Shown here piece by piece: positions 11,070 to 16,298 of a stretch of DNA of 55,679 nucleotides. A program made the position numbers and the translations under genes. Source of the DNA: an uncultured Methanosarcinales archaeon. Its GTDB lineage: Archaea > Nanobdellota > Nanobdellia > Woesearchaeales > CAYZNE01. The stretch covers positions 43,394 through 99,072 of the forward strand of contig CAYWRI010000001.1 of the NCBI GenBank assembly GCA_964461035.1, read 5' to 3'. The stretch's first letter is position 1. Each line of letters starts with the position of its first letter. The notes under the pieces were generated by a model. That model was not told the origin of the DNA, did not search any database, and saw only the letters and a list, made by a program, of their open reading frames with translations.

Positions 11070-11636
11070 CTATTCTCCGAATACAATGGCTTCAAAAGTG
11101 TAAACTGAAGTTGAAGAAGAATCTTTCCAAGCATTAACATTAAGACTTGCTTTCTGACAAGTCATTTGAAGTGCTTTTAAAGGTGTAGCGTCCCATTCAG
11201 TAAAAACTTGGGGTAATAAAATCCCTGAATAATAATTAGGTCCTTCAATAAATAATCCGTGTTTTCCAATCATAATTTTTTTCACGTATTTTTCAGGTTC
11301 ACATTTCAACTTTTCAAGAGGTGTCAAAACAGATATTTCTAATGTTATAAATGGAATTTCATCTCGTTTTAGAGGAGAAAATCTAGGATCATTAAATGCT
11401 GCTAATCTCGCATTGTCCCTTATTGCTTGCCACAAAGGAGCAATTGGTAGTGTGTGACCTATGCAACCTCTTAATTCCTTATTCTTATGCAAAGTTACAA
11501 ACGCACCTTGTTTCAAACTAAATTTTTGAACTTTTTTCTTTAGAAACTCGTCTACATCTTCTTTATTAAACTCAGATTCAATAGAATTTCTTGCTAAATC
11601 CAATAATAATGTTTTATCTTCTTTTGATATCTCCAT
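11070..11636 (-). CDS. AMMECR1-domain protein (AmmeMemoRadiSam protein A family)
   Basis: GAFVTLH...LRGCIG...AAFNDPRF...EISVLTP...GKHGL...GILLPQV...CQKA. Confidence 0.92.
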   Translation of the reverse strand: MEISKEDKTLLLDLARNSIESEFNKEDVDEFLKKKVQKFSLKQGAFVTLHKNKELRGCIGHTLPIAPLWQAIRDNARLAAFNDPRFSPLKRDEIPFITLEISVLTPLEKLKCEPEKYVKKIMIGKHGLFIEGPNYYSGILLPQVFTEWDATPLKALQMTCQKASLNVNAWKDSSSTSVYTFEAIVFGE

Positions 11637-11668
11637 TTTTTAATATGCTCACCTAATTTATAATAAAC

Positions 11669-11735
11669 GCGCTCTTCAGTTACTCATTGTAATCATTTCC
11701 TTGCGGATCATCGGGTGTTCACTAAATCATGGCGC
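11669..11735 (-). ncRNA. putative box C/D sRNA (67 nt)
   Basis: GCGC-C-[ATGATTT]-12-nt guide-[ATGA]-TCC/GCAA/GGA-A-[ATGATTA]-10-nt guide-[CTGA]-AGA-GCGC; the internal motif forms a complete K-turn; TTTTTTAAAG TATA-like element 22-31 nt upstream. Confidence 0.7.
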
Positions 11736-11854
11736 AAATTACGATAATACTTTACACTTTAAAAAATTAGTGGGTAAATAGTTTACTTATGTTACTAACC
11801 GTAATTGTTGTCAAATCAACAACACATTTAAATGATTAAATTCAAGCAGATATT

Positions 11855-16012: not shown

Positions 16013-16090
16013 TTATATCACAATCTATGTAATGATTCTAAAATATATAAATCTTTGGTTTGCTTTTTTAAATTATCTAAGAATAAAAAA

Positions 16091-16173
16091 CGCCAAGGCC
16101 CAGATTCGAACTGGGAATAGCCTAAGCTACTGGATCTCAAGTCCAGCCGAGTACCGGATTGTCGCACCTTGGC
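16091..16173 (-). tRNA. tRNA-Ser (TGA)
   Basis: Acceptor GCCAAGG/CCTTGGC, G73, anticodon arm CTGGA-CT-TGA-GA-TCCAG, long variable arm, T arm CCCAG-TTCGAAT-CTGGG. Confidence 0.93.
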
Positions 16174-16175
16174 AA

Positions 16176-16298
16176 TGCGGATGAGGAGACTTGAACTCCC
16201 GACCTCCAGATGGCTCAGCACACGAATAATCATTGCCTTGCAGCTCATCACTCATGGATTTATGAGTCTGGCGCTCTAACCAACTAAACTACATCCGC
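16176..16298 (-). tRNA. tRNA-Met (CAT, probably elongator) with a 49-nt intron at 37/38 (intron 16212-16260)
   Basis: Acceptor GCGGATG/CATCCGC, CCAGA-CT-CAT-A|intron|A-TCTGG; central BHB helix C32-A35 pairs with the intron's 3' TGAG. Ile2 identity cannot be excluded from sequence alone. Confidence 0.9.

Follow-up and report, generated by a model that had tools for sequence, protein, structure and literature searches.

Organization of the sRNA locus

The DNA analyzed here, the window, is a stretch of 55,679 nucleotides. Its minus strand harbors, at positions 11735-11669, an element of 67 nt with the structure GCGC-C-AUGAUUU-AGUGAACACCCG-AUGA-UCC-GCAA-GGA-A-AUGAUUA-CAAUGAGUAACUG-AAGA-GCGC. The GCGC termini noted in the original prediction were confirmed, as the 5′ strand (11732-11735) and the 3′ strand (11669-11672) pair with each other to form a terminal stem. 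Proceeding from the 5′ strand of this stem, the element contains box C (AUGAUUU, 11724-11730), a variant of RUGAUGA, the D′ guide AGUGAACACCCG of 12 nt (11712-11723) and box D′ (AUGA, 11708-11711), a variant of CUGA. The C′/D′ motif is closed by the hairpin UCC-GCAA-GGA (11698-11707) and is thus a K-turn, not a K-loop. On the other side of the hairpin follow box C′ (AUGAUUA, 11690-11696), the D guide CAAUGAGUAACUG of 13 nt (11677-11689) and box D (AAGA, 11673-11676), a second variant of CUGA, which abuts the terminal stem. All of these features lie on the minus strand. While the D′ spacer has a length of 12 nt, the D spacer comprises 13 nt, compared with the canonical 12.

The hairpin is also present in the predicted MFE fold of the RNA. 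The MFE z-score of -0.91 is unremarkable, as expected for a mostly single-stranded guide. Since this value is uninformative for C/D sRNAs as a class, MFE folding was dropped as structural evidence. Searches with the Rfam models, including the archaeal sR and snoPyro_CD models, gave no match to the element when gathering thresholds were applied; relaxing the cut-off to E<=10 disclosed only two chance snoRNA matches, both outside the sRNA element.

Downstream of the element and on the same strand resides the AMMECR1 gene (11636-11070; Pfam PF01871, E 6.8e-49), whose ATG at 11636 is located 32 nt behind the sRNA, in agreement with the predicted position just upstream of this gene. The upstream neighbor is a divergent gene of the amino-acid-kinase family. 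A TATA-like element (UUUUUUAAA, 11758-11766, minus strand) was found approximately 27 nt upstream of the 5′ stem. The proposal that the sRNA has a TATA-like box of its own was corroborated by 28 homologous loci, in which the equivalent upstream position shows an A+T content of 93-96%. A TATA-like hexamer occurs at this fixed position in 23 of the 28 loci, compared with 2-4 of 28 in flanking windows. A scan for sigma-70 promoters and intrinsic terminators was set aside as inapplicable to archaea. The sRNA is followed by a U-rich tail (GUUUAUUAUAAAUUAGG, 11652-11668, minus strand), which was read from the sequence; a run of at least four T within 22 nt of box D exists in 16 of 28 homologues. The tail is likely the terminator region of the sRNA and/or the TATA box of a leaderless AMMECR1 mRNA.

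Conservation and covariation of the sRNA family

By DNA searches, homologues of the element were identified across families of the same order, and 30 of them were aligned over 86 columns. Three blocks are unchanged in all 30 sequences: the GUGA(A)CACC core of the D′ guide, the UG of box C′ and GUAACU of the D guide. Conservation of at least 90% was determined for UGA of box C, GA of box D′, GA of box D and the A following the UG of box C′. All 30 homologues form the four core pairs of the terminal stem, among which compensatory changes (GC/AU/UA; CG/UA/UG) are seen. The D′-C′ hairpin, whose loops are of the GNRA or UUCG type, is paired in 97% of the cells and exhibits double-sided changes in four of four pairs. 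Taken together, the eight pairs of the terminal stem and the four pairs of the hairpin revealed double-sided changes in 12 of 12 cases. In these helices 86.5% of the cells are paired, compared with 66% in shuffled alignments, none of which (0/500) attained the observed value, and pairing fell to 22-55% when the partners were slid against each other. For all tested pairs, double-sided changes were found in 16 of 16, and 82% of the cells are paired versus 59% after shuffling (again 0/500). Judged from the aligned sequences, conservation and covariation of the family are far beyond chance.

The alignment also settled the register of box D. It had been proposed that box D is CUGA and that the guides are 12 nt and 10 nt long. 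However, this CUGA is made up of the last three bases of the D guide and the first base of the true box D (AAGA, 11676-11673). The tetramer is variable in the homologues (CUGA, CUGC, CUAC, CUUA and others), whereas the GA that follows four bases later, immediately before the stem, is conserved. We assigned box D to AAGA because position 6 of box C covaries with the base situated 4 nt in front of the stem (UA 16, GC 9, CG 3, unpaired 2). The assignment also fits the K-turn geometry, in which GA is followed by the canonical stem; a CUGA box with a 10-nt guide is excluded by this geometry and by the C6:D1 covariation. Therefore, the D guide is the 13-nt sequence CAAUGAGUAACUG, so that of the two proposed guide lengths only that of the D′ guide was retained. 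A corresponding covariation connects position 1 of box D′ with position 6 of box C′ (CG 15, AU 11, GC 2, UA 2, unpaired 0).

The boxes of our element deviate from the consensus in a regular manner. AUGAUUU and AAGA retain the G.A and A.G pairs together with a compensated U-A pair, and the variants are compensated forms of the canonical G6-C1 pair, with U6-A1 in both K-turns. The suggestion that AUGAUUA and AUGA represent a lineage-specific box consensus did not hold, as a second sRNA of the same genome and many orthologues use canonical boxes. The deviating boxes are thus compensated variants specific to the 11735-11669 sRNA and not a lineage-wide consensus. The locus displays every defining feature accessible to sequence comparison and is, on these grounds, a bona fide archaeal box C/D sRNA.

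A covariance model made for the sRNA family (R1) gave matches in 52 of 61 genomes of the order, in 49 of which the A-loop guide was seen on inspection. The matches in three genomes (G016, G030 and G045) have at most the other, non-A-loop guide in common. In a further genome, G035, both guides are present in swapped order, which raises the number of genomes with an A-loop guide to 50 of 61. The permuted sRNA of G035 is located on its contig C27 (L133:1760-1830) and reads GAGUAACUA-CUGA, then UGAUGA-GGUGAACACCAG-CUGA; a second copy of the A-loop guide lies approximately 275 nt upstream, and R1 missed both copies. The model also found the sRNA in other orders of the class Nanoarchaeia.

The D′ guide and the A-loop of 23S rRNA

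The assembly (1.26 Mb, 28% G+C, 34 contigs, 92.5% complete) contains only the first ~750 nt, i.e., the 5′ half, of the 16S rRNA gene (contig C27:1-730), which is located at the contig end, and no 23S rRNA gene. As the organism's own 23S sequence is absent, targets were read from two MAGs of the same genus and from more distant relatives. In all eight full-length 23S rRNAs of relatives and in both same-genus fragments, the A-loop (helix 92) is GG(G)UGUUCAC; the two fragments (G001, G002) read GGGGGUGUUCACCCAUUAAAAGGG at this site. Three of the full-length genes are conspicuously long, with 3646 nt (L036, G009), 3618 nt (L037, G034) and 3219 nt (L035, G017) compared with ~2905-2915 nt in the five other relatives, and probably carry introns or expansion insertions.

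Between the D′ guide and the same-genus 23S sequence GGGUGUUCAC, 10 bp are formed (-19.3 kcal/mol), the next best site reaching -12.7 kcal/mol. Counted upstream from box D′, the fifth base of the guide (A20) is opposite the first U of the loop, which corresponds to U2552 of Escherichia coli. The predicted pairing with the A-loop and the N+5 position on U2552 were thus supported. The one mismatch assumed for this duplex disappeared, because GGGUGUUCAC of this lineage is a perfect 10-bp complement of the guide. For five of seven archaea, sRNA-guided methylation of U2552 has been predicted (Dennis et al. 2015, PMC4644070).

The D guide and helix 74

For the D guide, UUACUCAUUG had been given as a target sequence not matched to any RNA. 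It is the complement of the presumed 10-nt guide and lies in the wrong register; its matches in the organism's own genome are scattered, and none was seen in a tRNA or rRNA gene. The corrected register leads to helix 74 of the 23S rRNA and to U2438. The conserved core GUAACU is complementary to AGUUAC, and AGUUACU occurs exactly once in each of the 23S rRNAs of the eight relatives, within GAAAAGUUACUCCGGGGAUAACAG, the 3′ strand of helix 74, while it is absent from two complete 16S rRNAs, the partial 16S rRNA of the organism itself and the 32 tRNAs of its genome. The same-genus 23S rRNA has this sequence, too. The E. coli numbering of this helix was checked against the pairs listed in PMC3351187.

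With AGUUACUC (2435-2442) on the 3′ strand of helix 74 the D guide forms 8 bp (-10.5 kcal/mol). This was its best site, narrowly, as the runners-up reached -10.2 kcal/mol in the G001 locus and -9.6 kcal/mol at a site at the 3′-end of the 23S rRNA of G002. The commoner form of the guide, ACGGAAGUAACU, pairs by 7+3 bp with helix 74 if one guide A is bulged, which is needed in most families of the order. Of nine genome/guide pairs analyzed by RNAduplex, seven had helix 74 as top site and two had not.

More stringent evidence came from other orders, in which the sRNA contains GUAGCU and faces a 23S sequence reading AAAAGCUAC(U/C)C, so that the pair GUAACU:AGUUAC is replaced by GUAGCU:AGCUAC. In G069 the guide CAGGGUAGCU and its target AGCUACCCUG form 10 bp with -19.9 kcal/mol, which leaves a margin of 7 kcal/mol to the next site, and in G105 the D guide pairs by 9 bp (-17.0 kcal/mol) with helix 74. 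In every case compared, N+5 is the same invariant U (U2438). We assigned the D guide to helix 74 because guide and target change together in other orders, an observation that we regard as decisive. U2438 in helix 74 is thus the predicted second target, backed by guide-target covariation.

Several other candidates were rejected. The anticodon loop of tRNA-Met was considered, as the guide holds AUGAG, but pairing is restricted to 6 bp, N+5 is opposite the wrong base and a U would be required at position 37. A perfect complement of the common guide form CGGAAGUAACU was not found in rRNA or tRNA among the 26 inspected of 38 order-wide AGTTACTTCCG matches; these 26 are either the C/D sRNA genes themselves or unrelated, apparently coding sequences. 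The 16S site CAGUUAAGUCUGG requires two central mismatches and is poor for the guide of our organism. Finally, the 23S 3′-end site GCAGUUACUA of G002 (see above) was discarded as a general target, since other families have not conserved this site, although they have kept the core of the guide.

A second sRNA and the tRNA-Met intron

A second C/D sRNA was detected in the same genome on contig C9 (39287-39356, minus strand). It has the sequence UUGUC-GAUGAUGA-AGUUAUUCCCGG-CUGA-ACUAGU-UGAUGA-GAAUGAGUAACUG-CUGA-GACAA and canonical boxes (GAUGAUGA/CUGA/UGAUGA/CUGA). While its D guide duplicates the U2438 guide, its D′ guide has its best site at CCGGGGAUAAC of the 23S rRNA (-18.1 kcal/mol), directly 3′ of the helix-74 site, with N+5 on G2446. 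By our own count, this nucleotide is the equivalent of yeast Gm2815. Orthologues of the second sRNA exist in G018, G016, G027 and G039.

The hairpin-capped K-turn of our element resembles that of the intron in the tRNA-Met gene (16176-16298, minus strand), which contains GAUGA-GCU-GCAA-GGC-AAUGAUUA. As predicted, the two K-turn hairpins are of the same kind and their stems, although different, are both complementary (UCC/GGA vs. GCU/GGC). Common to both are AUGA as a D′-type box, the 3-bp stem and the GCAA loop. In the intron the fifth base upstream of AUGA falls on C34, a known Nm site. Unlike the sRNA, the intron comprises a single K-turn and guide, acts in cis on its own pre-tRNA and is devoid of such a terminal C/D stem; sR-tMet of Haloferax volcanii is a comparable system. 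The tRNA-Met gene was missed by ARAGORN when run without the intron option. A tRNA-Ser(UGA) gene (16090-16174) is separated from it by a single base, which suggests a dicistronic tRNA transcript.

Methylation proteins and distribution of RrmJ

Genes for the protein components of C/D RNPs were identified in the genome. Fibrillarin (PF01269, 227 bits) and Nop5 (PF01798, 166 bits) are encoded side by side on contig C6 (56656-58005), and L7Ae (PF01248, 94 bits) on contig C4 (62340-62618). The original prediction had asked whether rrmJ/ftsJ is absent, and indeed a profile search of the genome, the assembly of which is 92.5% complete, found no RrmJ. The sole match to the FtsJ profile is an m5C methyltransferase of the NOL1/NOP2/Sun type and not RrmJ, and the sole SpoU-type enzyme belongs to the TrmJ family.

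Among the 61 genomes of the order, 50 contain the guide, four RrmJ, none both and seven neither. Full-length RrmJ (138-195 bits) was encountered in the order only in G005, G015, G042 and G048, all of which are without the guide. At the level of the class (151 genomes), the sRNA was found in 37 and RrmJ in 23 genomes, none had both and 91 had neither at the thresholds used. This exclusivity corresponds to a naive hypergeometric P of 8e-4, a figure inflated by kinship as the genomes are not phylogenetically independent. In this lineage, guidance by RNA thus seems to have taken the place of RrmJ/RlmE, the stand-alone methyltransferase for Um2552.

Discussion

We interpret the element at 11735-11669 as an independently transcribed box C/D sRNA of 67 nt guiding the methylation of U2552 and U2438, apparently in RrmJ's stead, and estimate the probability of this reading at roughly 0.8. 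For the organism studied here, we infer that the RNA is expressed, assembles into an RNP and directs both methylations. The terminal C/D motif (AUGAUUU and AAGA with the GCGC clamp) and the internal C′/D′ motif (AUGA and AUGAUUA with the 3-bp, GCAA-capped hairpin) would form one K-turn each. From the established behavior of this class of RNPs, the K-turns should be bound by L7Ae, upon which Nop5 and fibrillarin would be recruited. Each guide would then pair with the 23S rRNA, and methylation would take place at the ribose of the nucleotide facing the fifth base of the guide, counted upstream from box D′ or D. The D′ guide would direct this reaction to U2552, with which the A-loop of helix 92 begins, and the D guide to U2438 in helix 74. 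Both nucleotides belong to domain V and to the peptidyl-transferase center, 114 nt apart from each other.

A first rival reading concerns the second target. The RNA might be a genuine C/D sRNA in which the D′ guide alone directs methylation, the D guide being either an orphan or a folding chaperone that tethers helix 74 without modifying U2438. The short D duplex in the genus with its near-equal competitors, the bulged guide A required in most families and the D spacer of 13 nt are in line with such a function, and to our knowledge neither yeast nor human rRNA has an Nm at the position corresponding to U2438. On the other hand, GUAACU is unchanged in the 30 homologues and precisely in register with box D, guide and target change in concert from order to order with N+5 always on the same invariant U, and the same D guide has been retained in the second sRNA of the genome as well as in sRNA14 of Nanoarchaeum equitans. 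We therefore consider methylation by the D′ guide alone rather unlikely.

Two further explanations have much less in their favor. The element could be an L7Ae-binding K-turn leader, i.e., a regulatory 5′ UTR, of the AMMECR1 mRNA rather than a trans-acting guide, as the start codon of this gene follows on the same strand after only 32 nt and as binding of archaeal L7Ae to mRNA K-turns is reported (PMC5539422). However, AMMECR1 adjacency is limited to four genomes of the genus and was found at 0 of ~45 loci in other families; since the gene is adjacent only within the genus, the leader hypothesis fails. In addition, the most conserved parts of the element are the guide sequences and not just the K-turns, the sRNA has its own conserved promoter, and a T-rich tract and a second TATA-like element reside between the sRNA and the AMMECR1 ATG, which makes a leader very improbable. 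Least probable of all is a chance resemblance or a decaying, non-functional pseudo-sRNA. Such a reading could draw on four of four boxes being off consensus (AUGAUUU, AUGA, AUGAUUA, AAGA), on the lack of an Rfam match and on the fold z-score of -0.91. The box deviations are, though, compensated pairs that preserve the K-turn, and this covariation effectively refutes decay and chance; moreover, the guides are intact and complementary to the same-genus 23S rRNA, searches of the genome disclosed no other enzyme for Um2552, and the family has been kept in dozens of genomes.

The closest described relatives of our sRNA, as suggested by comparison of the guides, are two RNAs of N. equitans, sRNA10 for the D′ half and sRNA14 for the D half. 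For sRNA10, the guide AGUGAACACCCU followed by CUGA, the predicted target GGGGUmGUUCACC and expression (3,200 RNA-seq reads) have been reported (Randau 2012, Genome Biol 13:R63, PMC3491384; guide and target in Additional file 2). We recovered both RNAs in the N. equitans genome (G070) at the published coordinates, and the 23S rRNA of this genome matches as well. Like our element, sRNA10 comes from the class Nanoarchaeia and has a D′ guide (AGUGAACACCC) in front of box D′ that is directed to the first U of the A-loop. It differs by its own D guide, AAAAAUCCACACA, by a short K-loop spacer with canonical boxes instead of a hairpin-capped K-turn and by ends that are reported to be unpaired, whereas the present family has a GC-rich terminal stem of 4-8 bp. 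A search of the N. equitans genome with R1 reported no match at E<=1e-9. For sRNA14, the targets were listed as 'no prediction' (Randau 2012, PMC3491384). Its D guide AAGGAGUAGCUG with the non-canonical D box CAGA is the counterpart of our D guide and pairs with GAAAAGCUACUCCG of the N. equitans 23S rRNA by 9 bp (L166; G070:C1:323020-323115, minus strand; -16.8 kcal/mol), which is its top site, with N+5 on U2438. However, sRNA14 is an RNA of its own, and its D′ guide is unrelated. In the order studied here a single RNA unites the two guides and has, in addition, a GC-rich terminal stem and an internal K-turn capped by a hairpin.

RNA-guided methylation of the near-universal Um2552 by fibrillarin, instead of or beside RrmJ/RlmE, links our sRNA to the archaeal sRNAs of Dennis et al. 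(2015) and to snR52 of yeast, which together with Nop1 guides Um2921 (PMC12123411). Those systems belong to hyperthermophiles or eukaryotes and have other partner guides, while the present one was found in a mesophile-like DPANN archaeon with 28% G+C. A further difference is that in the present lineage none of 151 genomes combines the sRNA with RrmJ.

A more far-reaching interpretation is offered only tentatively and is, in our opinion, doubtful. Um2438 might be a hitherto unrecognized 2′-O-methylation common to the whole class Nanoarchaeia, whose guide would have followed its target across three or more sequence states, which would explain sRNA14 of N. equitans. The order might then have fused the helix-74 and the A-loop guides, and the sRNA might serve both as modifier, substituting for RrmJ, and as chaperone, keeping helices 74 and 92 together while the peptidyl-transferase center folds.

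RNAs of this kind are well known, the new aspect being their description in the present lineage of tiny genomes, and knowledge of how C/D RNPs work is unchanged by our findings. Modestly new are the corrected anatomy, the U2438 target, the exclusivity of sRNA and RrmJ and a candidate target for an orphan guide of N. equitans. The data point to an RNA-guided A-loop route in Nanoarchaeia, a group of largely uncultured DPANN archaea with tiny genomes (50 of 61 genomes of the order with the guide), and the genome-by-genome exclusion of guide RNA and RrmJ represents an apparent non-orthologous displacement. The predicted methylation of U2438, next to the peptidyl-transferase center, is a testable new site, and R1 can be used to annotate this so far unannotated gene in MAGs.

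The label Methanosarcinales attached to three MAGs that encode close AMMECR1 relatives, two of them from the same genus, looks wrong; the sRNAs resembling those of N. equitans and the genomes of ~1 Mb fit Nanoarchaeia.
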